The notes: a model not told the origin generated them from the sequence alone. DNA of 32,000 bases from Bdellovibrionales bacterium (GCA_965247685.1 OZ252021.1:120001-152000); one strand, 5' to 3'; shown: positions 1 through 18,155, counted from the first letter of the stretch. Program-made: numbers and translations.

Positions 1-143
1 TTATTTCTAATATTGATAAAAAGCTTTCTACATAGGTCTTTTGTGTAGGTTTGAGAAGGCAGTATAAACAAAACCACCATAGAAATGTAGAAGACTCTTT
101 TATATCTGTACTGAAAACTACTTTTTAATCCTTTAAATATCAT
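1..143 (-). CDS. 5' end (47 codons) of a further ankyrin-family paralog; the gene body lies beyond the left window edge
   Basis: Bases 1-143 are near-identical to 2906-3048, the 5' end of ORF 466..3048. The minus strand reads MIFKGLKSSFQYRYKRVFYISMVVLFILPSQTYTKDLCRKLFINIRN from the ATG at 141-143. Confidence 0.75.
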   Translation of the reverse strand, partial: MIFKGLKSSFQYRYKRVFYISMVVLFILPSQTYTKDLCRKLFINIRN

Positions 144-465
144 CCCATTAAATCCTCTAATGCATTATTAAATATAAAAGGTTTTTATAATTGTTAAATG
201 TCATTCCAATTAACTCCTGTTAGAGACGAGCTATATGAAAAAAAACTACTTTTATTTATGTAAAGATAAACTATCACGATGCACTGAAAATATCCATCAA
301 ACAAGAGTGAAGTGTGTAATTTTTACACTTACCTTAGAATACTCATCCCACTCGCCTAAGTTGGTTTACGGTACAGGCAACATTAAAAACGTACTGTTTA
401 GTTTAGTTTTCTTTTGTTGAATTTTTCATTACCATTAGATGAGCTATGGTTAAAGAATTTCAGTC
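144..465. repeat. Inter-paralog spacer repeat, copy 1 (upstream region of the edge-truncated paralog, downstream of ORF 466..3048)
   Basis: Near-identical to 3049..3359. Shorter copies occur at 5694..5872 and 10239..10306. Contains an A8 tract (238-245) and the 23S-like piece at 332-390. Confidence 0.85.
332..390 (-). other. 23S rRNA-derived fragment (59 nt) inside spacer repeat copy 1
   Basis: Manual alignment to 16425..16483 inside the genuine 23S gene gives 54/59 identical, same orientation. Four of the five differences are G->A on the + strand. Confidence 0.8.
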
Positions 466-3048
466 TCATTTCAAAAGCTGAATGAATTTCTCACGATATT
501 CACCATTAGTGTTCTTCTTTGCAAAATCAAGAGCCATATGACCATATTTATTTTTAGAATTTTTATTAGCTCCACTCTCTACCAATAACTCTACGATTTT
601 TAGATACCCATGCCTTGCTGCATACATGAGGGCTGTCTGACCATTTTTACTTTTGGCATTTTTATTAGCTCCACTCTCCACCAATAACTCCGCGATGTCT
701 AGATTTCCTTTCCCTGCTGCGTACATGAGTGCTGTATAACCATTTATATTTGTGGCATCTATATCAGCTCCCCGAGCCAGCAAAAAATCCACAAATTCTC
801 GATCCCCTTCCTCTGCTGCTTGAATGAGAGCTGTCTCACCCCATCTATTTTTGGCATCTATATCAGCTCCTCTAGCCAGCAAAAAATCCACAAATTCTCG
901 ATCCCCTTTCTTTGCTGCGTACATGAGGGCTGTCTCACTAAAAGAACTTCTAGCATTTATATCCAATAATATCTTAAATTTAGAATTTAAAACCTCCTCT
1001 ATCTGCTGTTCGTTTTCAGAAAAAAATACTTGAGAAATCTGCCTTATAAACTCTCTCTTATAAAATACTCTTACATCTTTCCAATTACTCATCTCTCCTA
1101 TAATAACTTGTTGCTCTTTTTTTGAAAATAATTCTAACTGAGTAGATAAAAAATCTAAATCTACATCGACTCTCTTTCCTAGCTCTAAATTGATTCTCTT
1201 TTTTAGCTCCCATTGAATTAAAGTAAATAAAGTCAACTTTCTGACTCTAGAATCAATATCTTGACCCTCTATTTTGTCCTTTAAATAACTTTTAACATAT
1301 TCTGAAGTGATATTGAGTCCTTCGATTTCTTTTAAGGATAACAAGTTATTTAAAAACTTTATCTGATCCTCTGTCTCATTGGATTTTCCTAACGAAAGTA
1401 CAGGTTCATATAAACCTCTAACACTTAATTCTTCAGACGCTGTTTGTGGAATATATATTTCACCCGGTCTAATCGTAATATTATCCAGTCCCCTGCCTTC
1501 TTCCTCTAGCACCAACATATCTAATCCCTGATCAGCTCTTGAATACTCATCTGAATACTCATTTTCAAATGGGTATTCATTAGGATGAGGTTGAAACTTT
1601 CTTAAACGAACTTTTAACTGAGGTAAAATCTTCTCCTTAAGATAGCCCCTTGTTATATCATCATTAGAGATGTCATTATGATCTCCTACATTTTTAGGGA
1701 GACCTAGTTTATATCCTAATTCCTTTAAACTCAGTCTTATACCTTCTAGTGTAGGAAGAAGTAAATGATTGGGAAAGTCTTGTATCTTATCAACAAAAGC
1801 TACCTGCTCCTTTTCTCCTCTTTCATTTTCAGCAGAACCCAAGACTACTGCAATATGCCCTGAAGATTTATAATTCTCACCTGTCAAAGTAAAATAAAGA
1901 TAATTAGGATCTAAAGCTTTCTCAAAATAATATTCCGTCGCGCAATCTCCACTCAAACAGGATCTAAATGGGGACTCTTGTATGGATAAGCTTCTCAATC
2001 GAAGAGTTTTCCTATAACCTTCCTTATAGGGCTGATTTTTTATATCATCTTCTATTCTTAGCAGTTGTGTAGAAATATCTTCATTAGGTTTAACATTTAA
2101 GGATTCTCTTAACTCAGAAAAATGCCCTTCAAATCCTAACTCAATCGCTATAACATTTCTTTCTGATAAAATTTTACGAACAGCATCTATTCTCTCTATT
2201 GGATTTTTACTTTTCAAAGAAGCCTCATAAAGAGGATTTCCAAAACCTGCTGTATCCACTAAATCCACCATAGCTTGTGATATGTATCGAACATCTCTTT
2301 TATCTGCCAATAACTGATCTCTTGCTTCATTTAAAATCTTATAGAATCCTATGATTTTTTCCCTATAAGGAATGGAAGAGTTTTCTATAAATTTCAAATT
2401 TTCTTCGCTGATGAATTTCTTAAAATAATCTTTAAAACCTTCCATTTGTTTTTGTTTCCACTCTTTTCGTTTTTGCCCTTTTAAATTGGAAGATGGTGGA
2501 GCTTCTTGAAAATCAAGTATTTTATGCCAAAATCCAATATTGGCTTCTATTTGAAATAAATTATTTCTTCGCCTCTTAGATGATTTTTTAAAGTTTTGGA
2601 TAAATTGAATCAAACTTTGAGATTGTTCATATTCTTTAATAGAAATTTCCAGAATCTGCTCTCGAAGAGATGGTTTAGAAAGTTCAGGATATTTTTCTAA
2701 AATTTGAAACAGAAGAGTGAAATATTTGTCTTTATTTATTTTTTCATTAAAATCTCCAAACCAATTTTTTAAATATAATTCCAATAAATCTGCTTGTTTC
2801 TCTCCAAGAAATAAACCTTGAGTCATCGCTTCTGCAAAGGCTCTTGGAGTCTTAGGTTTTGTCTTAGATTTTGTATCAGCTCTTACTGATTGTCCAGAAA
2901 AGACTTTATTTCTAATATTGATAAAAAGCTTTCTACATAGGTCTTTTGTGTAGGTTTGAGAAGGCAGTATAAGCAAAACCACCATAGAAATGTAGAAGAC
3001 TCTTTTATATCTGTACTGAAAACTACTTTTTAATCCTTTAAATATCAT
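466..3048 (-). CDS. Ankyrin-repeat protein (860 aa): hydrophobic N-terminal signal/anchor, ~650-aa uncharacterised body, 5 C-terminal ANK repeats
   Basis: Long ORF with ATG at 3046-3048 and GAGGA 9 nt upstream. The N-terminus RYKRVFYISMVVLLILPSQ is hydrophobic. The C-terminus holds five 33-aa units with the ANK consensus (G-TALMYAA--G----V-LL---GA--N). Confidence 0.9.
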   Translation of the reverse strand: MIFKGLKSSFQYRYKRVFYISMVVLLILPSQTYTKDLCRKLFINIRNKVFSGQSVRADTKSKTKPKTPRAFAEAMTQGLFLGEKQADLLELYLKNWFGDFNEKINKDKYFTLLFQILEKYPELSKPSLREQILEISIKEYEQSQSLIQFIQNFKKSSKRRRNNLFQIEANIGFWHKILDFQEAPPSSNLKGQKRKEWKQKQMEGFKDYFKKFISEENLKFIENSSIPYREKIIGFYKILNEARDQLLADKRDVRYISQAMVDLVDTAGFGNPLYEASLKSKNPIERIDAVRKILSERNVIAIELGFEGHFSELRESLNVKPNEDISTQLLRIEDDIKNQPYKEGYRKTLRLRSLSIQESPFRSCLSGDCATEYYFEKALDPNYLYFTLTGENYKSSGHIAVVLGSAENERGEKEQVAFVDKIQDFPNHLLLPTLEGIRLSLKELGYKLGLPKNVGDHNDISNDDITRGYLKEKILPQLKVRLRKFQPHPNEYPFENEYSDEYSRADQGLDMLVLEEEGRGLDNITIRPGEIYIPQTASEELSVRGLYEPVLSLGKSNETEDQIKFLNNLLSLKEIEGLNITSEYVKSYLKDKIEGQDIDSRVRKLTLFTLIQWELKKRINLELGKRVDVDLDFLSTQLELFSKKEQQVIIGEMSNWKDVRVFYKREFIRQISQVFFSENEQQIEEVLNSKFKILLDINARSSFSETALMYAAKKGDREFVDFLLARGADIDAKNRWGETALIQAAEEGDREFVDFLLARGADIDATNINGYTALMYAAGKGNLDIAELLVESGANKNAKSKNGQTALMYAARHGYLKIVELLVESGANKNSKNKYGHMALDFAKKNTNGEYREKFIQLLK
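514..963 (-). repeat. Five in-frame 99-nt (33-aa) ankyrin modules; adjacent pairs are highly similar at the DNA level
   Basis: 99-nt periodicity. ggcatctatatcagctcc... starts at 754 and again at 853. ttttattagctccactctc... starts at 561 and again at 660. Confidence 0.85.
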
Positions 3049-3359
3049 CCCATTAAATCCTCTAATGCATTATTAAATATAAAAGGTTTTTATAATTGTT
3101 AAATGTCATTCCAATTAACTCCTGTTAGAGACGAGCTATATGAAAAAAAACTACTTTCATTTATGTAAAGATAAACTATCACGATGCACTGAAAATATCC
3201 ATCAAACGAGAGTGAAGTGTATAATTTTTACACTCACCTTAGAATACTCATCCCACTCGCCCGAGAGGATTTACGGTACAGGCAACATTAAAAACGTACT
3301 GTTTAGTTTTATTTTGTTGAATTACCATTGGATGAGCCTATGGTTAAAGAATTTCAGTC
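3049..3359. repeat. Inter-paralog spacer repeat, copy 2
   Basis: Near-identical to 144..465, including the A8 tract (3143-3150) and the 23S-like piece. Confidence 0.85.
3237..3295 (-). other. 23S rRNA-derived fragment (59 nt) inside spacer repeat copy 2
   Basis: Manual alignment to 16425..16483 gives 51/59 identical. It is more diverged than copy 1 (ttgg -> agga in the middle). Confidence 0.75.
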
Positions 3360-5693
3360 TCATTTCAAGAGCTGAATGAGCTCCTCACGATGTTCACTAT
3401 TAGGGTTCTGCCTTGCAAAATCAAGAGCCGTCTTTCCATCTTTATTTCTGATTTTTTTATTAGCTCCACTCTTCACCAATAACTCCACGAGTTCTAGGTG
3501 CCCTTTCCTTGCTGCAGATATGAGAACCGTATCACGATCATAATACTTATCTGTGGCATCTATATTAGCTCCATTCTTCAACAACAACTCCATGAGTTCT
3601 AGATGCCCATGCCTTGCTGCATGCACAAGAGCCGTATAACCAAATTCATCTGTGGCATTTATATCTAATAATATCTTGAAGCTGGAATTTAAAGCCCTCT
3701 CTATTTGCTGTTCATTTTCAGAAAAAAATACTTGAGAAATCTGCCTTATAAACTCTCTCTTATAAGATACTCTTACATCTTTCCAATTACTCATTTCTCC
3801 TATAATAAATTGCTGATCTTCGAGTGAAAAGAATCCTAACTGAGTAGATAAAAACTCTAAATCTACACTAATGTCCTTTTCTCGATTCCATTGAATTAAA
3901 GTAAATAAAGCCAACTTTCTGATTTTAAAATCAATATCTTTATCCTTTATTTTGTCCCTTAAATAACTTTCAACATATTCTGAAGTGATATTGAATTCTT
4001 CGATTTCTTTTAAGGATAACAAGTTATTTAAAAACTTTATCTGATCTTCTGCCTTATTAGATTTTTCTAACGAAAGTACGGGTTCATATAAACCTCTAGC
4101 ACTTAATGCTTTAGATGCTGTTTGTGGAATATATATTTCACCCGGTCTAATCGTAATATTATCTAGTCTCCTGCCTTCTCCCTCTAACACCAATATATCT
4201 AATCCCTTATTAGCTCTTGAATGCCCACTGTAAAATGGGTATTCGTTAGGAAGAGGTTGAAACTTGCTTAAATGAACATTTAACCAAGGTAAAACCTTCT
4301 CCTCAAGATAGCCCCTTGTTATATCATCATTGGAGATACCATCATTCTCTCCTACATCTTTAGGAAGACCTAGTTTATATCCTAATTCCTCTAAACTCAA
4401 TCTTATACCTTCTAGTGTAGGAAGAAGTAAATGATTGGGAATGTTTTGTATTTTATCGACAAAAGCTACCTGCATCTTTTTTCCTCTTTCATTTTCAGCA
4501 GAACCCAAGACTACTGCAATATGCCCTGAAGACTTATGATCCTTACCTGTAAAAGTAAAATAAAGATAATTAGGATCTAAAGCTTTCTTAAAATAAAATA
4601 CCATCGCACAATCTCCACTCAAACAGGATCTAAATGAGGACTCTTGTATGGATAAGCTTCTCAATCGAAGAGTTTTTCTATAACCTTCCTTATAGGGCTG
4701 ATTTTTTATATCATTTTCTATTCTTAGCAGTTGTGTAGAAACATCTCCATTAGATTTAACATTTAAGGATTCTCTTAACTCAGCAAAATGCCCTTCAAAT
4801 CCTAACTCAATCGCTATAACATTTCTTTCTGATAAAATTTTACGAACAGCATCTATTTTCTCTATTGGATTTTTACTTTTCAAAGAAGCCTCATAAAGAG
4901 AATTTCCAAAACCTGCTGTATCCACTAAATCCACCATAGCTTGTGATATGTATCGAACATCTCTTTTATCTGCCAATAACTTATCTCTTGCTTGTTTTAA
5001 AATCTTATAGAATCCTATAACTTTTTCCCTATAAGGAGTGGAAGAGTTTTCTATAAATTTCAAATTTTCTTCATTGATGAATTTATTAAAATAATTTTTA
5101 AAATCTTCCATTTGTTTTTCTTTCCACTTTTTTCGTTCTTGTCCTTTTAAGTTGGAAGGTAATGAAGTTGTTGGAAAATCAAGTATTTTATACCAAAATC
5201 CAATATTGGCTTCTATTTGAAATAAATTATTTCTTCGCCTCTTAGATGATTTTTTAAAGTTTTGGATAAATTGAATCAAACTTTGAGATTGCTCATATTC
5301 TTTAATAGAAATTTCCAGAATCTGCTCTCGAAGAGATGGTTTAGAAAGTTCAGGATATTTTTCTAAAACTTGAAACAGAAGAATGAAATTTGTGTATTTA
5401 TCTATTTTTTCATTAAAATCTCCAAACCAATTTTTTAAATATAATTCCAATAAATCTGCTTTTTTCTCTCCAAGAAATAAACCTTGAGTCATCGCTTCTG
5501 CAAAGGCTGTTGGAATCTCAGGGTTTGTATCAGCTCTTACTGGTTGTCCAAAAAAGATTTTGTTCTTAAAAAGCTTTCTACATAGGTTTTTTGTGTAGGT
5601 TTGAGAAGGTAGTACAAGCAAAACCACCATAGAAATGTAGAAGACCCTTTTATATCTGTACTGAAAACTACTTTTTAATCCTTTAAATATCAT
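3360..5693 (-). CDS. Ankyrin-repeat protein paralog (777 aa), 3 C-terminal ANK repeats
   Basis: Long ORF with ATG at 5691-5693. The first ~690 aa are co-linear with ORF 466..3048, with long identical runs such as KEYEQSQSLIQFIQNFKKSSKRRRNNLFQIEANIGFW. The C-terminal ANK region differs in copy number and sequence. Confidence 0.9.
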   Translation of the reverse strand: MIFKGLKSSFQYRYKRVFYISMVVLLVLPSQTYTKNLCRKLFKNKIFFGQPVRADTNPEIPTAFAEAMTQGLFLGEKKADLLELYLKNWFGDFNEKIDKYTNFILLFQVLEKYPELSKPSLREQILEISIKEYEQSQSLIQFIQNFKKSSKRRRNNLFQIEANIGFWYKILDFPTTSLPSNLKGQERKKWKEKQMEDFKNYFNKFINEENLKFIENSSTPYREKVIGFYKILKQARDKLLADKRDVRYISQAMVDLVDTAGFGNSLYEASLKSKNPIEKIDAVRKILSERNVIAIELGFEGHFAELRESLNVKSNGDVSTQLLRIENDIKNQPYKEGYRKTLRLRSLSIQESSFRSCLSGDCAMVFYFKKALDPNYLYFTFTGKDHKSSGHIAVVLGSAENERGKKMQVAFVDKIQNIPNHLLLPTLEGIRLSLEELGYKLGLPKDVGENDGISNDDITRGYLEEKVLPWLNVHLSKFQPLPNEYPFYSGHSRANKGLDILVLEGEGRRLDNITIRPGEIYIPQTASKALSARGLYEPVLSLEKSNKAEDQIKFLNNLLSLKEIEEFNITSEYVESYLRDKIKDKDIDFKIRKLALFTLIQWNREKDISVDLEFLSTQLGFFSLEDQQFIIGEMSNWKDVRVSYKREFIRQISQVFFSENEQQIERALNSSFKILLDINATDEFGYTALVHAARHGHLELMELLLKNGANIDATDKYYDRDTVLISAARKGHLELVELLVKSGANKKIRNKDGKTALDFARQNPNSEHREELIQLLK

Positions 5694-5872
5694 CTCATTA
5701 AATCCTCTAATGCATTATTAAATATGAAAGGTTTTTATAATTGTTAAATGTCATTCCAATTAACTCCTGTTAGAGACAGCTATATGAAAAAAACTGTTTT
5801 CATTTATGTAAAGATAAACTATCACGATGCACTGAAAATATCCATCAAACAAGAGTGAAGTGTGTAATTTTT
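5694..5872. repeat. Inter-paralog spacer repeat, copy 3 (truncated; lacks the 23S-like piece)
   Basis: Matches 144-~325 and 3049-~3230 and has an A7 tract instead of A8. Homology stops at gtgtgtaattttt, just before where the 23S-like piece starts in the other copies. Confidence 0.8.
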
Positions 5873-5931
5873 TCAAATTTAACATACTTTGTTGACAAGT
5901 ATATTTACTTCAGTGTTTACTCCATGAAACT

Positions 5932-8900
5932 ATGTTATGTAAAAACCTACAGCAGATCTTAAAAGTAGGGATTTCTTTAAATTTTCAAAAACGTATATTT
6001 GAATATAAAAAAATTCTTTATTTAATAATTTTACTTTCAATTCACTCTGTTTCTGCTAGGCCTGATCCTGGGATGGATGGCTGTTTTCCTCCTTACTGTA
6101 TACAAAATCCTTCCATTATTCCTAAAGGAAAATCGAATGAAGAAATTCTCAACCCACCATTAAATGTTAAATATAAACCACAGGCATTCCAGATACGGGG
6201 ACAGGTACTCCAGATGGTTATTATGCAAGAGTTTCTGAAAGACCCAAATACATATTTGGCTTTCGCGTTTGCTGCAAGAGGAAAATATTCCCGTTTTGAA
6301 AACGTCCAAAAAAATTTTGGATTTAAAAAGATCTTGGATCTTGGACGAAATGTAAATGTAAAATTAAAATTCCCATGGAGCCAATGGGTCGAAGTTTCGA
6401 TAGATATTCCGCTTAAATCGCAAACGAATAGAATAGTTTTTACAAACGTTCAACAAGATTTAGAGAATTTCAAGCGTGTGACTCATGCAACAGCTCAAGT
6501 ATTGATGGAATGTAAAGACAACATGCAGAACTGCCCTATTTTTCGTAATTTATTTAAAGAAATAAATGATCCACATGAGCTTCAAGAGTTACAAGAGGGC
6601 TGGAGCAAAGCTATTGCTTTTGCAAATAAAAACGGCATCAATGTTTTTCAAAACAATACTATAGAAGACTTGCAATTTATGTACCCTTTAGAATCAAACT
6701 TGGTTCAAACGCTGAACAATTCTGAAGATATAAAGAAACAAACAGAAGCTTTTAAAGACTTTATAGTATTACAAGAAGAGGATCGAGTGGCTCACATTCA
6801 AGCAAATGACCCTTTCTACACTGGAAAAGATGCAACTACTTTACATTTGCAAAATAAATGGAACGAATATCAAACACAACTAGAGCAGATCAAACAACAG
6901 CAACTCATTCCTAATCAAACAACAGAAGAATTAGTCCATCTTTCCAACGAAGAGACACGAACTTCAAAGGCTTTAGAGAGAATAGATACAGCAAAAAAAC
7001 TATATAAGAATGAGCAACTTTCTAACGGAATTATAGCAGTTGCAGGAGCTACCAAAGCTGTTGGTCAAGTTTTGGGTGTACCTAAAGAAATAATCCAATT
7101 AGCTGACATTGTTATTATTAAGACGCAAATAATTAGTACAGTGAACAAGATGATTATTAGTGGTGCTGTAGATCCAACCGGCATTACAGCCATAGCTATA
7201 GGGTTGAGTGCCTTACTAAGAATTATATCTAATACTCCATCTCCAGAACAATTGATGAAGGAGGTATTTGATGACATTCAAAAAAAACTGGAGACTGTAT
7301 TAGTAAATCAAGAACAGATACTTGCCGAGTTAGAGTATATGAAAGATCTTATGCAGAAAAACCACCGTGAAATTATTGACAACCTTGGTGTTATTCAAAA
7401 GAGGTTACATCAAATTGAAACATCTATGCAGTTTAACTTTGAGGCTGTATTCAAAGAGTTTGACACCCAAACATTTAAAGAGATAATGGGAAGAGCTTAC
7501 GGTTTAAGAACAAATTTATCTAAACCGATTCATCAGCAGCAAGTATGCCTTGAAAAAGATGAAAATAATCAATGTGTGATGCTATATAACCCATCCTTTG
7601 AGGACATTAGGGAGAGTGGACGTCTCTTGGGAGAGATATATAAAAATTGGGAAAATATCTCCCAGATGGATATCGAAAAAGACTTTTCCAAGCTTTCAAA
7701 AGAAGACATCGAAAAGTACATAGAAAATCCCTCTATAGAGGCTAGACTGCCTTTTTTATCGTCAATGGTTCATTGGCTGAACAGTGCGGAAGATCGACTG
7801 AACACTTTATCTGTTGGCAGAAAAATACGTACTCAGATACCATCTGATTTGATTTTTGGAAAGAATATTCCTGAGCCTCCTAAAGAAATTGCTCTTCCTT
7901 CCTATCAAGATAAAATACTATCTGAATATATTGAGCTGGCTAGCTTACTCCCGCCAGAATCAGATGATCTTGGAGGTATGACTCATGATGATCATGTTGA
8001 TAAAATGTGCCAAAGACTTTCATCTATTGAATCTTTGTCAAAAACAATGAGGGAAAATTTGCAAAAAGCCTGGGCAACTTATTATTTTTATTCAATAACA
8101 ATATATAATAACGTAGTAAATTATTTCGATGATCTACCTAGAAAAGAACTAAAATTGAAAGCAAATAAAAGTAAAAAAGAGCTTCGAAATGAGAAGGATG
8201 CTCATGAGAGTAAAGAAGAGCTTCGAAATGAGAAAGATGCTCATGAGAAGGATGCTCTTGAAAAAATACCACTAAAATCATTCATATCTACTGCAAACAG
8301 GGTTTATTTTCATGAGCATCCTTCTCATCAGCATCCTAAGCCTCCTAATATATCAAGATATTTTTCCAATTTTTCAAGCATCTTAAATGATGTCCTAGAT
8401 GATATGCTTAATAATACAATGAGTGATAGGGATATGTATATACATGGATACATAAAGCAAGTTCCATACAGAGAGCGTAAGTGTATAAGACAGATTATGG
8501 TGCAAAAGAAGATTGAGGTGCCGCAGGATAAGATATTACTACCACCACCATGTAAGGATTTTACCCTAGGTGATCTGATTATGTCCAGAGGAAGTGGCCC
8601 TGACGGGGGTTACGGAGGTGGCCCTGGCCCTGAAGGGGGTTACGTAAGTAGCCCAAAGTGTCGGAAGACTATCACACTACAACACATTTTCGCACCACGA
8701 ACAAGGTGGAAAAGCCACTGTTATGAGTGGGAAAAGGTTGGAACAGGTCCTATAAAATATAGGATAGAAAATGATAGAGAATCTTTTAAAAAAGCCCAAA
8801 TAGAAGAATGGAGATGGGTTCCAACCTATATTTACACTCATATTATAAAGGAACTGGATAAAAAGGATTTAATTGCAGAATGGATGCGCGCCAAACTTGC

Positions 8901-9825
8901 TGTAGATACAATGGCTCACATTGGCTACGGTGAACAGCTTTCTTCGCATCCTAAATTATCTATGTTAAATAAATTAATCAAAACGCTTCCTGCCCGTAGA
9001 GAACCATCTTCAAAAGAGCCAGGTCATATATATCAATTTTTTAAAGATATAGAAGCTATACGCAAACACTCTGATTCTCCATTTTTAATTAATTATGCTC
9101 ATGCAACAGCAAGTAGGATAAATTTATATAGAGATGAATCCAATCAGGTATCTCCTTTAACCTTTATTAATCCTATTTTATTCACTGGATGTGAGACAGA
9201 AGATTTTAGGGTGAAATCTACTATATTTAACACTCACAGTATAATGAATTTATTAAATTCTTCATCACAAAAAATAGAGAAGAAATTTTCCCATTATATG
9301 AAAAAAGAAAAGTCTCCACAATTTACTTCCTCAGATGAGTTGATTGAATTTTTACAAACAATATTAGAAGAAGCTGTTGAAAATAAGAAGCCATTTGATG
9401 TATTCACATATATGAAGGAGCAGAATTTACACTTTCTTCTAGACTTAAATAAACAAAACAGTAATCAAAGGCGGATCAAACCTTTTTGTAGTCTATCTTT
9501 TGTAGAACTGTCATCACAAAAATCACAAAAATATATCTATCACTCTTTTATGAAAATTATTCATCCTGTTGTACAAATGTCTTTTAAAGAGTGGCAGAGG
9601 AACAGAACATTCGGGGTCGGCGATTGGGAACAACAAGTTATGGAACATTGGGCATTAAAAGAAGGAATTTCAGTGCCATCAATGTTTTATCTCCCTTTAC
9701 CCTCTGAAGATTTGTGGAAAAATCAACCAATAGGATTAGGGATTCCTGAATTGCGCCGTCAAGCTCTTTTTAAAGCAGGGTTTTACGAACACCTTAAACC
9801 TAAATATTGTTCATTAGTACAATAG
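5932..9825 (+). CDS. Large orphan protein (1297 aa), probably secreted or membrane-associated
   Basis: Uninterrupted 3.9-kb ORF. Signal-like segment KKILYLIILLSIHSVSA-RPD. Long hydrophobic stretch around GIIAVAGATKAVGQVLG...GAVDPTGITAIAIGLSALLRII. Heptad-like charged regions, a 13-aa tandem repeat and a Gly-rich GPDGGYGGGPGPEGGY patch. I recognise no catalytic motif. Confidence 0.8.
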   Translation: MLCKNLQQILKVGISLNFQKRIFEYKKILYLIILLSIHSVSARPDPGMDGCFPPYCIQNPSIIPKGKSNEEILNPPLNVKYKPQAFQIRGQVLQMVIMQEFLKDPNTYLAFAFAARGKYSRFENVQKNFGFKKILDLGRNVNVKLKFPWSQWVEVSIDIPLKSQTNRIVFTNVQQDLENFKRVTHATAQVLMECKDNMQNCPIFRNLFKEINDPHELQELQEGWSKAIAFANKNGINVFQNNTIEDLQFMYPLESNLVQTLNNSEDIKKQTEAFKDFIVLQEEDRVAHIQANDPFYTGKDATTLHLQNKWNEYQTQLEQIKQQQLIPNQTTEELVHLSNEETRTSKALERIDTAKKLYKNEQLSNGIIAVAGATKAVGQVLGVPKEIIQLADIVIIKTQIISTVNKMIISGAVDPTGITAIAIGLSALLRIISNTPSPEQLMKEVFDDIQKKLETVLVNQEQILAELEYMKDLMQKNHREIIDNLGVIQKRLHQIETSMQFNFEAVFKEFDTQTFKEIMGRAYGLRTNLSKPIHQQQVCLEKDENNQCVMLYNPSFEDIRESGRLLGEIYKNWENISQMDIEKDFSKLSKEDIEKYIENPSIEARLPFLSSMVHWLNSAEDRLNTLSVGRKIRTQIPSDLIFGKNIPEPPKEIALPSYQDKILSEYIELASLLPPESDDLGGMTHDDHVDKMCQRLSSIESLSKTMRENLQKAWATYYFYSITIYNNVVNYFDDLPRKELKLKANKSKKELRNEKDAHESKEELRNEKDAHEKDALEKIPLKSFISTANRVYFHEHPSHQHPKPPNISRYFSNFSSILNDVLDDMLNNTMSDRDMYIHGYIKQVPYRERKCIRQIMVQKKIEVPQDKILLPPPCKDFTLGDLIMSRGSGPDGGYGGGPGPEGGYVSSPKCRKTITLQHIFAPRTRWKSHCYEWEKVGTGPIKYRIENDRESFKKAQIEEWRWVPTYIYTHIIKELDKKDLIAEWMRAKLAVDTMAHIGYGEQLSSHPKLSMLNKLIKTLPARREPSSKEPGHIYQFFKDIEAIRKHSDSPFLINYAHATASRINLYRDESNQVSPLTFINPILFTGCETEDFRVKSTIFNTHSIMNLLNSSSQKIEKKFSHYMKKEKSPQFTSSDELIEFLQTILEEAVENKKPFDVFTYMKEQNLHFLLDLNKQNSNQRRIKPFCSLSFVELSSQKSQKYIYHSFMKIIHPVVQMSFKEWQRNRTFGVGDWEQQVMEHWALKEGISVPSMFYLPLPSEDLWKNQPIGLGIPELRRQALFKAGFYEHLKPKYCSLVQ
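8179..8262 (+). repeat. In-frame 39-nt tandem repeat (2 units plus a partial unit) inside the 1297-aa ORF
   Basis: gagcttcgaaatgaga[a/g]gatgctcatgag occurs at 8179 and 8218, then a partial aaggatgctcttgaa. It encodes ELRNEKDAHE(SKE)ELRNEKDAHEKDALE. Confidence 0.85.
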
Positions 9826-10087
9826 GAAGGATATCTGTAATAGATTTAATTTCAAGAATATCTGATAAATTGAAAATTCCAATTTTATAATAAATTAAAA
9901 TTTAAAAGTAAGTCATATAAACTGAAAACCCATATGGCTTACACAAAGAAATTATACTTATCTATTTGGTCATCAATAAACTTATTTTTAGATTTTTTTA
10001 AAAACTTATCCATCATCATCGTCTTTGCTATTCTGAGATACCACAGAACTATCATCTGAAACTTTCTCTTCTTCAAGGGTAGGCATT

Positions 10088-10238
10088 CACTTCTGCAAAG
10101 GCTGTTGGAGTCTTAGGTTTTACCTCAACCTTTACTATCTCTGAAGGAGGCTGACTTTTCAGATCTTTTCTTACTGGTTCTCTAGAAAAGACTTTATTTC
10201 TAATACTGAAAACTAATTTTTAATCCTTTAAATATCAT
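10088..10238 (-). pseudogene. Decayed 5' relic of an ankyrin-family paralog
   Basis: The minus strand from the ATG at 10236-10238 reads MIFKGLKISFQY then a stop. An internal deletion joins it to ...RNKVFS...KPKTPTAFAE, matching residues ~46-73 of the intact paralogs. Homology then ends. Confidence 0.75.
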
Positions 10239-10306
10239 CCCATTAAATCCTCTAATGCATTATTAAAGGTTTTTATAATTGTTAAAGACGAGCTATATGA
10301 AAAAAA
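10239..10306. repeat. Inter-paralog spacer repeat, copy 4 (short, with internal deletions)
   Basis: cccattaaatcctctaatgcattattaaa..ggtttttataattgttaaa..gacgagctatatgaaaaaaa matches copies 1-3 apart from two deletions. Confidence 0.7.
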
Positions 10307-10623
10307 GCGTTTTAAAAATAAAGTATTTTTCAACAGTTTTTTATTAATTTCTTAAAAAGAATTCATCTCTATTTTTTGAACATAATTATTATACTACTTC
10401 ATTTTTCATCAAGGTATTTCTTTTATTGTAAATTTCACACACTTTCAACAGTCAATAAAGCTTTTATGTAAAAAGTATAATTGACTCTAAGGATTTTCCG
10501 AATTAAGAATCAAGGAGGGGCTAGTGTGGTTGAAAGTTGAGCAGAGAACTTCAAATCTACGTACATTGACTCTATTTCAGTCACGGCAACAATAAGAAAA
10601 CTGTATTCTATAGTAGAAAGAAA

Positions 10624-11781
10624 ATGAGAAAATTCTTAAAAAAATATATTTACATAATCATTTTTATGAGCATCTCTTACGCTTTTTCAAACGAAGAATA
10701 TATTAGTTATCCAGAACTGACAAAATTTGTGCAAGATCTTAACATAAAAACTAAACCAGATTATGTAAAATTTTTTCTAGAAAATGGAAAGGAGTTAGGC
10801 CTTCCTCCTCTCAACCAAATTCCACGTATATATTCCGAAAACTGGAGAAGCTGGCATGAATTCTTTGGATTGTCAGAAAAAAAATATAACAAACATATTC
10901 AAGATCTTTCAAACAGTGATCAACCTTCAAAACAAAACTTTTCTACTATTGATGAAATAATAGAACAGACAACAGCTCAGCTTGATGAAGAAGGGACAAC
11001 TCAGCCAAAACTTCAGAAACCTTCGGAATCCATAAAAACACCAACTAAAGAAAATCCCAATTATCAAATCAAAAGAAGAAAAAATTTTCTCACTTATGAA
11101 GAACTTAAAAAGCTTATTCGATCTCAGGGAGATATTAGAACTGGAAAAACCTATCATGAATGGCGTAAACAAAATCAAGGAATAGCTCCGGCTAATCCAA
11201 GTAAATTCTACCTTCAATGGAAAGGGTGGAAAGAATTCTTAGGTGATCAATTCAGACATCTCTCTTATAAAAGATTAATGGAAGAAGTACGAAAACGAGA
11301 TATCCAAACTGCTATGCAATACAAATATAATTACAAAGATATTAAAGGAGCTCCTTCCAACCCTGAGCGATTTTATCCTGAATGGATAAGTTGGAGAGAT
11401 TTCCATGGTACTCAAATCTCACGTCCCACTTATAAAGAATTAAAAGAAGGAGTACAAAGACTAAACTTTCAATCGATGGAAGAGTATCAAGAAAGACGCA
11501 AAGAAATTCATCCAGGGGCTCCTTCCCGCCCTGATACAATTTATCCTGAATGGGAGGGTTCGAAAATTTTCTTTAATATTCAAATCTCACGTCCCACTTA
11601 TAAAGAATTAAAAGAAGGAGTACAAAGACTAAACTTTCAATCGGTGACAGAGTACAGAAGAAGACGCAAAGAAATTCATAAAGGAGCTCCTTACAACCCT
11701 AATCAGTTTTATCCTGACGAATGGGAAGGATGGAATATTTTTTTAAATAAATCAAAATGCGAGCAGGTATTTAATCAATAG
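10624..11781 (+). CDS. Secreted repeat protein (385 aa): Sec-type signal peptide plus 5 copies of a ~55-aa Trp/Pro-rich module
   Basis: N-terminus MRKFLKKYIYIIIFMSISYAFS-NEE. The module is repeated, e.g. ISRPTYKELKEGVQRLNFQS-EY--RRKEIH-GAP--P---YP-EWEGW-IF. Near-identical 168-nt DNA repeats start at 11413 and 11581. Confidence 0.85.
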   Translation: MRKFLKKYIYIIIFMSISYAFSNEEYISYPELTKFVQDLNIKTKPDYVKFFLENGKELGLPPLNQIPRIYSENWRSWHEFFGLSEKKYNKHIQDLSNSDQPSKQNFSTIDEIIEQTTAQLDEEGTTQPKLQKPSESIKTPTKENPNYQIKRRKNFLTYEELKKLIRSQGDIRTGKTYHEWRKQNQGIAPANPSKFYLQWKGWKEFLGDQFRHLSYKRLMEEVRKRDIQTAMQYKYNYKDIKGAPSNPERFYPEWISWRDFHGTQISRPTYKELKEGVQRLNFQSMEEYQERRKEIHPGAPSRPDTIYPEWEGSKIFFNIQISRPTYKELKEGVQRLNFQSVTEYRRRRKEIHKGAPYNPNQFYPDEWEGWNIFLNKSKCEQVFNQ

Positions 11782-11816
11782 AAAGAAAATCAGAAACCCT
11801 GTATTTTGTAATAAAA

Positions 11817-11955
11817 ATGAGAAATTTCTTAAAAAAATATATTTACATAATCATTTTTATAGGCATCCCCTACGCTTTTTCAGACGAAGAACCTATTGTT
11901 TTTAGTTATTTAGAACTGCAAAAATCAGTGCAAGATTTGAGCACAAAAACTAAAA
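11817..11955 (+). pseudogene. 5' stub of a third paralog of the secreted repeat-protein family
   Basis: MRNFLKKYIYIIIFIGIPYAFSDEE...LQKSVQDLSTKTK parallels the first ~45 codons of 10624.. and 12289... Homology ends at ~11955 and the next duplication unit begins at 11996. Confidence 0.7.
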
Positions 11956-11995
11956 CATCATCTTTTTTTCTTTTAACATTCTTTCGAATTGAACT

Positions 11996-13362
11996 AACAG
12001 TTTTTTATTAATTTCTTAAAAAGAATTCATCTCTATTTTTTGAACATAATTATTATACTGCTTCATTTTTCATCAAAGTATTTCTTTTATTGTAAATTAT
12101 CACACGCTTTCAACAGTCAATAAAGCTTTTATGTAAAAAGTATAATTGACTCTAAGGATTTTCCGAATTAAGAATCAAGGAGGGGCTAGTGTGGTTGAAA
12201 GTTGAGCAGAGAACTTCAAATCTACGTACATTGACTCTATTTCAGTCACGGCAACAATAAGAAAACTGTATTCTATAGTAGAAGGAAAATGAGAAAATTC
12301 TTAAAAAAATATATTTACATAATCATTTTTATGAGCATCTCTTACGCTTTTTCAGACGAAGAATATATTAGTTATCCAGAACTGACAAAACTTGTGCAAG
12401 GTCTTCACATGACAACTAAACCAGATTATGTAAAATTTTTTCGAGAAAATGGAAAGGAGTTAGACCTTCCTCCTTTCAACCAAATTCCACGTATATATTC
12501 CGAAAACTGGGGAAGCTGGTATGAATTCTTTGGATTGTCAGAAAAAGAATATAACAAACACATTCAAGATCTTTCAAACAGTGATCAACCTTCAAAACAA
12601 AACTTTTCTACTGTTGATGAAACAATAGAACAGATAACAGCTCAGCTTGATGAAGAAGGGATAGCTCAGCCAAAACCTCAGAAACCTTCGGAATCTATAA
12701 AAACACCAACTAAAGAACATCCTAATTATCGAACCCCAAAAAAAAAAGAAATAAAAATAAATAAGGGAATAAGAAATTTTCTCACTTATGAAGAAGCAAA
12801 AGCAAGAACACAAGAACTAGGTATTCCATCAGGGAGAGTTTACAAAAAGAGATATTCAGAAATTGACGGAGCACCTTCTAACCCTGATAGAACTTATCGT
12901 AAAGAATGGAAAGGTTGGAGAGATTTCCATGGTACTCAAATCTCACGTCCCACTTATAAAGAATTAAAAGAAGGAGTACAAAGACTAAACTTTCAATCGA
13001 GGGTAGAGTATCAAGAAAGACGCAAAGAAATTCATCCAGGGGCTCCTGCTCATCCTGAGACATTTTATCCTGATGAATGGGAAGGTTGGGGAATTTTCTT
13101 TAATATTCAAATCTCACGTCCCACTTATAAAGAATTAAAAGAAGGAGCACAAAGACTAAACTTTAAATCGATGAAAGAGTATCGAGAAGGACGCGAAAAA
13201 ATTCATCCAGGGGCTCCTGCCAACCCTGATCGATTTTACGCTGAATGGGAGGGTGCGGTAATTTTTTTAAATAAATCAAAATGCGAGCAGGTACTTAATC
13301 AATAGAAAGAAAATCAGAAACCCTGTATTTTGTAATAAAAATGAGAAATTTCTCAAAAAAAT
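11996..13362 (+). repeat. Tandem segmental duplication, unit 2
   Basis: See unit 1. It ends in a ~22-nt remnant of yet another paralog start (atgagaaatttctcaaaaaaa at 13341). Confidence 0.85.
12289..13305 (+). CDS. Secreted repeat protein paralog (338 aa): signal peptide plus 4 copies of the ~55-aa module
   Basis: N-terminus MRKFLKKYIYIIIFMSISYAFS-DEE, with GAAGGA before the ATG. Module DNA repeats start at 12937 and 13108 (171-nt period). Confidence 0.85.
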   Translation: MRKFLKKYIYIIIFMSISYAFSDEEYISYPELTKLVQGLHMTTKPDYVKFFRENGKELDLPPFNQIPRIYSENWGSWYEFFGLSEKEYNKHIQDLSNSDQPSKQNFSTVDETIEQITAQLDEEGIAQPKPQKPSESIKTPTKEHPNYRTPKKKEIKINKGIRNFLTYEEAKARTQELGIPSGRVYKKRYSEIDGAPSNPDRTYRKEWKGWRDFHGTQISRPTYKELKEGVQRLNFQSRVEYQERRKEIHPGAPAHPETFYPDEWEGWGIFFNIQISRPTYKELKEGAQRLNFKSMKEYREGREKIHPGAPANPDRFYAEWEGAVIFLNKSKCEQVLNQ

Positions 13363-13424
13363 AAGTAGTCACATCAAGCCTACAAGTAAAAGAGATTAAA
13401 AACTAATGCAAACTTCCATTATAA

Positions 13425-13808
13425 ATGTTAAATAAGCCTTATGAAAAAAAGATTCCTTTAAACCTTATCATCATAATTCCAAGCTTTTCACTTCTTTTAA
13501 TTAAGTCCTTAAAAACACCTATACTCATTCACTTTACTGTAGCCGGCAATATTATTATGTTTTCATCTGCTTATGTTTTTTTACATTTTGAAAAAAACCT
13601 AAACCCCAAAGTACAAAATTATGGAGATGCTCTCTGGTGGGCTCTTTGCACGATCTCAACTGTTGGTTATGGAAATATCTACCTTATCACTGGAGCAGGT
13701 CGATTGACTGGAGCTTTTCTTATTATTGTTGGAGTTATGTTTTTTCTGGGATTTACTGCTTCTATTGTATCTATTATTTTATCTTACATTTCTTCAGAGA
13801 AAGAGTAA
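13425..13808 (+). CDS. Small potassium channel (127 aa), pore-only architecture
   Basis: K+ selectivity filter TISTVGYGN preceded by the pore-helix-like YGDALWWAL. Flanking hydrophobic helices. No RCK/TrkA or voltage-sensor region. Confidence 0.8.
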   Translation: MLNKPYEKKIPLNLIIIIPSFSLLLIKSLKTPILIHFTVAGNIIMFSSAYVFLHFEKNLNPKVQNYGDALWWALCTISTVGYGNIYLITGAGRLTGAFLIIVGVMFFLGFTASIVSIILSYISSEKE

Positions 13809-14078
13809 TCCTCACAATAACCGCCTTTGAATTCATTACAGCTCATGTTTCACACAATTTCTGCCACACAGGAAATCTTCGTTTTTTTGTTCATTCCTTA
13901 TTTTCCTCCTTTAAATAAAGGATTCTATATCTAAAGAAAGAAGCATTTTCCTGTATCTCAAGAAATGTGAATTTAGATTTAATTGAAGACAAGATAAATT
14001 TTATATGTTATTGTTAATGCTTATTAGAAATAAATCCCTTAAGCCACCATAAGCTTTTTATTGAGTTGAGGTAAATAT

Positions 14079-14988: not shown

Positions 14989-15000
14989 TTCTTAATTAAA

Positions 15001-15114
<114 letters not shown>

Positions 15115-15164
15115 AAAGGCGTGTTTCTGTTAAAAGCAAAAATCAAAAAAGGTGGGTATGATTT

Positions 15165-18155
<2,991 letters not shown>

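Follow-up and report, generated by a model that had tools for sequence, protein, structure and literature searches.

Introduction

In effectors of the AnkX, LegAS4 and OspC type the solenoid of ankyrin (ANK) repeats recognises the substrate, and the ANK protein Bd3460 of Bdellovibrio bacteriovorus is a small stand-alone inhibitor. Wolbachia carry 23-60 ANK genes per genome (PMC3563639), and in small genomes ANK enrichment goes with life in association with eukaryotes (PMC3932732). Here we describe a tandem array of ANK genes at positions 1-5693 of a 32,000-nt stretch of Bdellovibrionales DNA (GCA_965247685.1, OZ252021.1:120001-152000; hereafter the window, with positions counted from its first letter). 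The array encodes predicted exported proteins in which a variable number of C-terminal ANK repeats follows a large conserved body, the core of which most likely has a divergent GNAT-like fold.

Results

A head-to-tail array with constant 5' ends and variable tails

The array comprises at least three genes arranged head to tail, with every copy on the minus strand (open reading frame (ORF) list and translation), and a remnant of a further copy lies outside it:

1-143, minus strand: copy C, codons 1-47 only (MIFKGLKSSFQYRYKRVFYISMVVLFILPSQTYTKDLCRKLFINIRN), the remainder lying past the window edge (translation)
466-3048, minus strand: copy A (P0121), intact, 860 aa, five ANK repeats (ORF list)
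3360-5693, minus strand: copy B (P0122), intact, 777 aa, three ANK repeats (ORF list)
10088-10238, minus strand: 5' relic of a further copy, with about 30-60 nt of upstream homology (10088-10267; repeat families D8, D11 and D14; blastx against the paralogs)

A first-pass annotation of the window had described three same-strand copies 2.6-2.9 kb apart, the first of them cut by the edge, and the start-to-start spacings of 2905 and 2645 nt agree with this. The repeat units of the array are far above chance expectation. Copies C and A are 99% identical across their first 300 nt: window 1-300 recurs at 2906-3205 (99%), and copy C itself has 99% nucleotide identity to 2906-3048, the 5' end of copy A. 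Compared with 5551-5850, window 1-300 is 78% identical ungapped and 94-98% identical when aligned. Sliding-window comparison of the two intact copies showed that identity varies along the genes. Per 100-nt window it is 84-99% across most of the body; in four short body patches it drops to ~60-75%, and in alignable ANK DNA it is 69-85%, with a 297-nt gap in the A/B alignment that equals three ANK units. The A and B proteins are 76% identical (BLASTP). The description of the copies as near-identical was somewhat overstated.

A fourth, decayed copy had also been placed at ~10.1 kb. Homologous sequence is present there, but as a 5' relic only. The relic retains the upstream block and codons 1-12, followed by a stop; the core of the signal peptide is deleted. 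After the deletion comes a P0002-like linker (DLKSQPPSEIVKVEVKPKTPTAFAE), which ends after 'TAFAE', with nothing further downstream. The 85-nt block around the start codon makes its fourth occurrence here, at 10183-10267 (87%).

Further paralogs are encoded elsewhere in the genome, namely P0001 (820 aa, four ANK repeats) and P0002 (932 aa, six ANK repeats); both lie on the same 1,280,446-bp contig as copies A and B. Since the N-terminus of copy C is unlike those of P0001 and P0002, copy C is an additional paralog. As judged from these sequences, the genome holds at least five intact paralogs and one relic.

ANK tails differ by whole repeats

The tails of the two intact copies map as follows:

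469-966, minus strand: five ANK repeats, copy A residues 695-860 (Pfam Ank/Ank_2, 99-nt period, AlphaFold2)
3363-3668, minus strand: three ANK repeats of copy B (Pfam)

ANK repeats had been called from the sequence alone, and a Pfam hidden Markov model (HMM) scan bore this out with strong matches in both copies. Ank_2 scored 133 bits in copy A (E=4.9e-39; cut-off 27.3), where Ank scored 122.6 bits, and 81.9 bits in copy B (E=4.9e-23); membership in the ankyrin-repeat proteins (Pfam CL0465: PF00023, PF12796) is above the gathering threshold. The count of five repeats versus three stands as well. In the AlphaFold2 model of copy A, residues 707-859 form five helix pairs that recur every 33 aa, the ANK part of copy B covers residues ~676-777 with three repeats, and the tail lengths of 170 aa (A) and 106 aa (B) agree with five versus three repeats, differing by whole 99-nt (33-aa) units. 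The period is also visible in the DNA of the copy A tail as a 99-nt tandem repeat (4 copies at ~80%). Two adjacent repeats of copy A contain an identical 17-aa string, GDREFVDFLLARGADID, which points to recent duplication of a unit.

Within this one genome, bodies that are 80-94% identical carry three, four, five or six ANK repeats. Across the family, tails consist of 0-17 ANK repeats, of an FGE-sulfatase-like domain (PF03781) or of LRR_5 repeats; the nominally 'tail-less' set (A3) still gives one or two cryptic ANK-like profile columns. In two young arrays of other genomes (L024 and L001), bodies are 90-96% identical and tails 55-70%. The earlier proposal of a constant body coupled to an exchangeable module is thus supported within the genome, in young arrays elsewhere and by the range of tails in the family.

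The body contains a conserved alpha/beta core of predicted GNAT-like topology

The ~690 residues that precede the ANK repeats have no match in Pfam, NCBIfam, PDB sequences, PHROGs or PADLOC, in keeping with the original description of a body of unknown kind; neither a housekeeping domain nor any other known one was matched. AlphaFold2, run with a 117-sequence alignment, gave a confident model, with a predicted local distance difference test score (pLDDT) of 90.1 for full-length copy A and, for residues 61-691, a pLDDT of 92.4 and a predicted template modelling score (pTM) of 0.88. In this model the ~630-aa body divides into three domains, given here with copy A residues:

2044-2850, minus strand: N-terminal, mostly helical domain, residues 67-335 (AlphaFold2 secondary structure; no family match)
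1429-2043, minus strand: conserved alpha/beta core, residues 336-540 (alignments A1/A4, AlphaFold2, Foldseek)
967-1428, minus strand: C-terminal helical domain with GEMSNW motif, residues 541-694 (AlphaFold2, family consensus)

Conservation is concentrated in the core. The 117 aligned sequences have nine invariant columns and ~40 conserved at >=90%, concentrated in 350-423; all nine invariant columns and most of the near-invariant ones fall inside the core. Invariant core residues include R352, E358, R362, C369, T387, S395 and G404, and near-invariant ones R350, C364, D368, D420, K421 and Q423.

The predicted order of core elements, b1-a1-a2-b2-b3-b4-a3-b5-a4-b6, matches GNAT topology (E341-353, short helices 363-379, E383-389, E395-407, E413-423, H427-442, E447-451, H464-477 and E480-487, with E for strand and H for helix). 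In Foldseek searches the best matches, weak as they were, were uniformly GNAT enzymes (PDB E 0.016-0.7, BFVD E 0.03-0.7), with GmvT, NatD, TacT, AtaT, SpeG, AAC(6'), aTAT1 and viral acetyl- and myristoyl-transferases among the neighbours. In sequence comparisons, a core-only profile found nothing below E=0.47 among PDB sequences and no match in Pfam, and neither copy A nor copy B had a Pfam Acetyltransf_* match; profiles that retained the ANK columns were dominated by ankyrin and DARPin matches. Going by the predicted model, the body core most likely has a divergent GNAT-like fold.

A predicted Sec signal and three fixed cysteines

Copy A opens with a putative signal peptide:

2944-3048, minus strand: Sec-type signal peptide, copy A residues 1-35 (heuristic hydrophobicity scan)

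Its n-region is K/R-rich (four K/R) and is followed by the hydrophobic stretch VFYISMVVLLIL and then by PSQTYT. A hydrophobic region with Kyte-Doolittle hydropathy (KD) >=2.0 within the first ~55 aa is present in 158 of the 183 family members with an intact N-terminus (86%), and in the family it is mostly followed by AxA|GPCEE, a small-residue cleavage motif. The family proteins are accordingly predicted to be Sec-exported. The linker after the signal peptide is the second variable region, with a 12-nt offset repeat (KTKPKTP) at window 2826-2887; in P0002, residues ~55-125 hold three copies of the 'P-x-AFAEAMTxGL' segment with which the body starts.

Exactly three body cysteines, all in fixed columns (C38, C364 and C369; alignment A1), are found in 95 of 117 members; in copy A they lie at window ~2935, 1957 and 1942. 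Cys38, just after the signal peptide, is present in all members that have the N-terminus (108/108). This first cysteine stands 3-5 residues past the predicted cleavage site, and within the core the remaining two are spaced as C-x4/5-C. The signature could represent a disulfide plus a free catalytic cysteine, or a redox or metal site. We also considered a lipoprotein reading of the conserved cysteine and rejected it, because Pro precedes Cys in 'LAGPC' and the positions vary, so that there is no lipobox.

A lineage-specific family of uncultured Bdellovibrionota

Beyond the at least two further paralogs in this genome, a body-only search returned 108 relatives, and every named one belongs to Bdellovibrionales or Bdellovibrionaceae and comes from a metagenome genome. 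Scanning one genome per GTDB species with three highly conserved peptide patterns yielded 73 related loci, all of them in metagenome-assembled genomes (MAGs) and nearly all in Bdellovibrionota (the label on one contig is Nitrosovibrio); the three patterns matched no genome of a cultured predator in this set. Genomes often contain several loci, on chromosomes of 1.0-2.8 Mb, and MAGs labelled Bdellovibrio, Pseudobdellovibrio and Bacteriovoracaceae also contain family members. Tandem arrays of 2-5 same-strand copies occur at 14 of the 73 related loci, or 15 of 74 when this window is counted. A representative search of 1.84 billion proteins listed at least 150 clusters (50% identity) that match the body over its full length, with nothing but true family members in the top 150; several hundred family clusters probably exist. 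Source names are limited to 'ankyrin repeat domain-containing' or 'hypothetical', and a literature search found no description of the family or of ANK-rich small-genome Bdellovibrionota. As far as database sequences go, the body is an undescribed, lineage-specific family found only in uncultured Bdellovibrionota.

Independent support for the taxonomic placement comes from the fumarase encoded in the window, which is 84-89% identical to proteins on contigs of 1,162,801, 1,105,625 and 593,977 bp and 62-64% identical to proteins named Bdellovibrionales; the closest fumarase relatives are on 1.0-1.6-Mb contigs. The organism is an uncultured small-genome member of the Bdellovibrionota. None of the 108 body relatives, which reach 45% identity at best across genomes, comes from the genomes closest by fumarase (84-89%). 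Either these sister genomes lack the family, or the clustered, word-indexed database hides members; copy B's cluster, for one, is represented by a 36-aa fragment.

Bodies probably evolve in concert while tails diverge

Synonymous divergence (dS) between copies A and B differs by region: it is 0.035 in the N-terminal domain, 0.127 and 0.132 in the core and the C-terminal domain, and 0.42 in the ANK part, or 0.087 for the body as a whole against 0.42 for the tail (Fisher p ~1e-6). The N-terminal domain shows a replacement excess (ratio of nonsynonymous to synonymous divergence (dN/dS) 1.66). A/B substitutions avoid the family-conserved columns (Mann-Whitney p=1e-7), with 6 of 123 highly conserved columns differing between the copies, which indicates that constraint is relaxed or diversifying, not lost.

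In the four-paralog alignment the nearest paralog changes along the gene. Copy B goes with P0001 at columns 40-100 and copy A with copy B at columns 100-120; from column 260 onward, tail included, copy A and P0001 are almost identical, while their N-termini are not. Topology-informative sites are divided 32, 7 and 3 among the three topologies, and the minority patterns cluster N-terminally (runs test p=0.011). Bodies are 80-94% identical within the genome and at most 45% identical to those of any other genome, compared with 84-89% for the fumarase. The dS contrast, the switches of nearest paralog and the within- versus between-genome identities together support recombination or gene conversion, and with it the first-pass suggestion that conversion keeps the copies similar. 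With strong ANK HMM hits, non-uniform identity and a body unlike a housekeeping domain, that annotation's overall outline stands.

These sequence patterns fit a scheme in which the array would grow by unequal crossing-over, non-allelic recombination or gene conversion would homogenise the promoter, 5' end and body, and the tails would turn over faster, through gain and loss of whole 99-nt repeats together with faster divergence or swapping. We weighed this against a simple recent tandem duplication without gene conversion, in which the tails evolve faster under relaxed or diversifying selection. The low body dS, spacers that are 94-99% identical and dN/dS near 1, as is typical of young duplicates, are all compatible with such a history. 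Selection at the protein level, however, should not produce a five-fold difference in tail dS, and the switching of nearest paralogs, with a copy A tail almost identical to that of P0001 but an N-terminus that is not, also speaks against it. We regard duplication without conversion as improbable.

The same mosaic sequences, together with identical promoters and a truncated copy nearby, recall a variable family of surface or secreted antigens, in which the body would be non-enzymatic (structural, adhesive or a scaffold) and silent or partial copies such as the relic would supply variation through recombination. The dN/dS of ~1, the replacement excess in the N-terminal domain and the fact that no known family's catalytic motif is recognised would also suit an antigen family. 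However, R352, E358, R362, C369, D420, K421 and Q423 are conserved and cluster in one alpha/beta domain of sequences that are otherwise ~35-45% identical, and such clustering of charged and Cys residues is typical of an active or ligand-binding site. Moreover, the most variable part is the ANK tail rather than the body, and the relic holds no body sequence with which to serve as a donor. An antigen family is, in our judgement, very unlikely.

Spacers and neighbouring genes

The regions between and upstream of the copies are themselves repeated:

144-465, minus strand: C/A spacer, conserved ~170-nt upstream/5' region of copy C plus the region downstream of copy A (upstream alignment)
3049-3359, minus strand: A/B spacer, conserved upstream region of copy A plus the region downstream of copy B
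5694-5870, minus strand: conserved upstream region of copy B, common to a divergent 1297-aa gene starting at 5932

Copies C, A and B have almost the same ~170 nt 5' of the start codon (upstream alignment), and at an offset of 2905 identity across window 1-400 is 92-100%. The C/A spacer contains a GAGGA ribosome-binding site within the conserved upstream region of copy C. A scan of 1-6000 for consensus promoters and terminators found none, with fewer matches than in shuffled sequence. Small antisense ORFs (61 and 79 aa; plus strand, 235-420 and 3140-3379) occupy the spacers between copies; their conservation from unit to unit follows simply from the repetition of the spacer, and there is no evidence that they are genes.

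Divergent from copy B, an orphan ORF of 1297 aa (5932-9825, plus strand) has a signal-peptide-like N-terminus and an internal 39-nt tandem repeat at 8170-8248. It has no match in Pfam, NCBIfam, PHROG or PADLOC and no homolog across the 73 related loci, and a comparison by hhalign (probability 0.2%) led us to reject a remote kinship with the body. No neighbour genes were found to co-occur with the family in other genomes.

Further along the plus strand lies a second tandem paralog family of two signal-peptide proteins (385 and 338 aa; 10624-11781 and 12289-13305); both contain PF14882 ('integrase repeat') units as well as internal tandem repeats of 168-171 nt. Upstream of the two genes the sequence is 98% identical, and a 64-aa fragment (11817-12011) separates them. 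The presence of this second tandem family of secreted proteins beside the array marks the region as a hotspot of duplicated exported-protein genes. A 127-aa two-transmembrane potassium-channel-like protein (PF07885; 13425-13808, plus strand) is encoded between the duplicated secreted-protein genes and a 23S and 5S ribosomal RNA (rRNA) pair (15000-18155, minus strand). No 16S or transfer RNA gene adjoins the pair, making it an unlinked rRNA operon, an arrangement that is common in reduced, host-dependent genomes. The pgk gene starts ~340 nt upstream of the 23S gene, and the window also carries ordinary metabolism genes.

Discussion

What the proteins may do

On balance we favour the view that the array encodes an exported, divergent GNAT-like enzyme that is docked on a protein target by its C-terminal binder, and that the paralogs retarget one chemistry. 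The body would be an exported enzyme, most likely a group or acyl transferase with a Cys/Arg/Glu/Asp centre, whose catalysis we infer. The ANK tail would dock this enzyme onto a particular target protein, a role that an FGE-sulfatase-like or LRR tail may take in other members, and the paralogs would then apply the same chemistry to different targets in the exploited cell. As to that cell, we weakly prefer a eukaryotic host over bacterial prey; both a targeting role for the ANK tail and a eukaryotic target are inferred.

Alternatively, the proteins could be predation factors directed against bacterial prey, Sec-exported and released, as other Bdellovibrio hydrolases are, into the periplasm or cytoplasm of the prey, with the ANK part binding a bacterial target or providing self-protection or regulation in cis. 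The phylum is known for bacterial predation, Sec signals suit the Bdellovibrio secretome better than they suit substrates of type III or type IV secretion systems (T3SS/T4SS), and family members do occur in MAGs with the labels Bdellovibrio, Pseudobdellovibrio and Bacteriovoracaceae. In addition, the only characterised Bdellovibrio ANK protein serves as an immunity protein against a secreted endopeptidase, which it blocks (PMC8289219). An immunity role, however, leaves unexplained why a 630-aa conserved body is fused to the ANK repeats, and ANK-rich small genomes are statistically tied to eukaryotic hosts (PMC3932732). All 73 loci, moreover, come from MAGs, with no cultured predator genome matched by the three peptide patterns, and the carrier chromosomes are small at 1.0-2.3 Mb. 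The genome of cultured B. bacteriovorus, at ~3.8 Mb, is well above them. We consider predation factors possible but unlikely.

Several observations weigh against an exported GNAT-like enzyme aimed at a host. None of the Foldseek matches is significant (best E=0.016, TM 0.47 when target-normalised, root-mean-square deviation 5-9 A). The GNAT pyrophosphate motif Q/R-x-x-G-x-G/A is replaced by Q-N-V-P-x-x: the consensus after beta4 is D-K-I-Q-N-V-P-x-x-x-I, in which Q423 is kept and both glycines are absent. With the threshold relaxed to E<=10, 27 core sequences still had no match to an acetyltransferase HMM. It is on account of the weak Foldseek statistics, the lost coenzyme A (CoA) loop and the lack of HMM matches that we name the core 'GNAT-like' and not a demonstrated GNAT member. 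Acyl-CoA is absent from the periplasm and the extracellular space, so a CoA-dependent Sec-exported enzyme would need a further delivery step, and no secretion system is visible in the window. The signal-peptide call rests on a heuristic, and copy B deviates from the family consensus at P360S and H488L, losing two conserved residues. The A/B body dN/dS of ~0.94 could mean relaxed constraint, and the recombination test is based on 42 informative sites. Finally, in the sole studied Bdellovibrio ANK case the protein inhibits the predator's own secreted enzyme and is not a eukaryote-directed module (PMC8289219).

More tentatively still, the family might constitute a new class of exported enzyme: GNAT-derived, with the CoA loop lost, bearing the three fixed cysteines (C38, C364 and C369) and an Arg/Glu/Asp centre, and amplified into arrays with interchangeable binders (ANK, FGE-like and LRR) in a clade of uncultured 1-2-Mb Bdellovibrionota, for modifying eukaryotic host proteins. 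We think this doubtful in its full form.

If the favoured enzyme reading is true, these genomes contain a large effector-like family whose 630-aa body has no Pfam, NCBIfam or PDB counterpart, and which gives a workable entry point to how these unexplored lineages act on their hosts or prey. Were the exported enzymes to modify eukaryotic proteins, this would imply that, within the phylum, predation on bacteria gave way to parasitism of, or symbiosis with, eukaryotes. The locus would also provide a natural experiment in modular retargeting, in which the body bears three to six ANK repeats within one genome and an FGE-like or LRR tail in others, as well as a clear case of concerted body evolution beside tail diversification. 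Working out what chemistry a GNAT-like fold performs without the CoA loop and with a conserved Cys pair could add a new activity to the superfamily.

Comparison with known systems

In overall plan, a functional body followed by an ANK solenoid, the proteins resemble Legionella AnkX/LegA8 (FIC+ANK), LegAS4 (SET+ANK) and the Shigella OspC ADP-riboxanases. NCBIfam T4SS_Ank* and Pfam OspC models match family proteins in the ANK part only, with 17-76 bits against cut-offs of 450-1400. Membership among the Legionella/Coxiella Dot/Icm effectors (T4SS_AnkX, AnkY, AnkH) was rejected at a best score of 76 bits against a cut-off of 600, confined to residues 686-849; likewise, OspC (PF06128) aligned only with P0067, residues 697-761 against model 219-286, in the ANK region, and left the body unmatched. 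Unlike these effectors, the body has no FIC, SET or ART sequence kinship, the proteins carry Sec signals rather than T3SS/T4SS ones, and the phylum is Bdellovibrionota. The parallel with Legionella- and Rickettsia-type taxa drawn in the first-pass annotation therefore does not carry over to the organism or to the export route.

With the GNAT acyltransferases (GmvT/TacT/AtaT, NatD/Naa40, SpeG and N-myristoyltransferase) the body shares the predicted strand and helix order of the core, and they are its best structural neighbours; the family alpha3-G-beta5 pattern MLEGIRLSLKExGYxLGLP resembles the helices of GNAT motifs A/B. It differs from them in having no Q/RxxGxG/A loop, no HMM match and weak statistics, and in that two large helical domains flank the core, which has a Cys pair in the alpha1-alpha2 region and belongs to a protein predicted to be exported.

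Like the ANK families of Wolbachia, this one is multicopy in small genomes and varies in repeat number between paralogs. Unlike them, its ANK repeats are a small C-terminal addition to a large, conserved body that is not itself ANK, and its genes form head-to-tail arrays with near-identical promoters.

Within the same phylum the nearest parallel is B. bacteriovorus Bd3460, likewise an ANK protein tied to an exported enzyme (Lambert et al. 2015, as cited in PMC8289219). The arrangement here is a different one: the ANK repeats occupy the last 106-170 aa of proteins that are 777-860 aa long, and there is no separate small ANK ORF in 1-14000. In contrast to Bd3460, the ANK part belongs to the same polypeptide as the presumed enzyme, differs in length among paralogs and is replaced elsewhere in the family by other binding domains.

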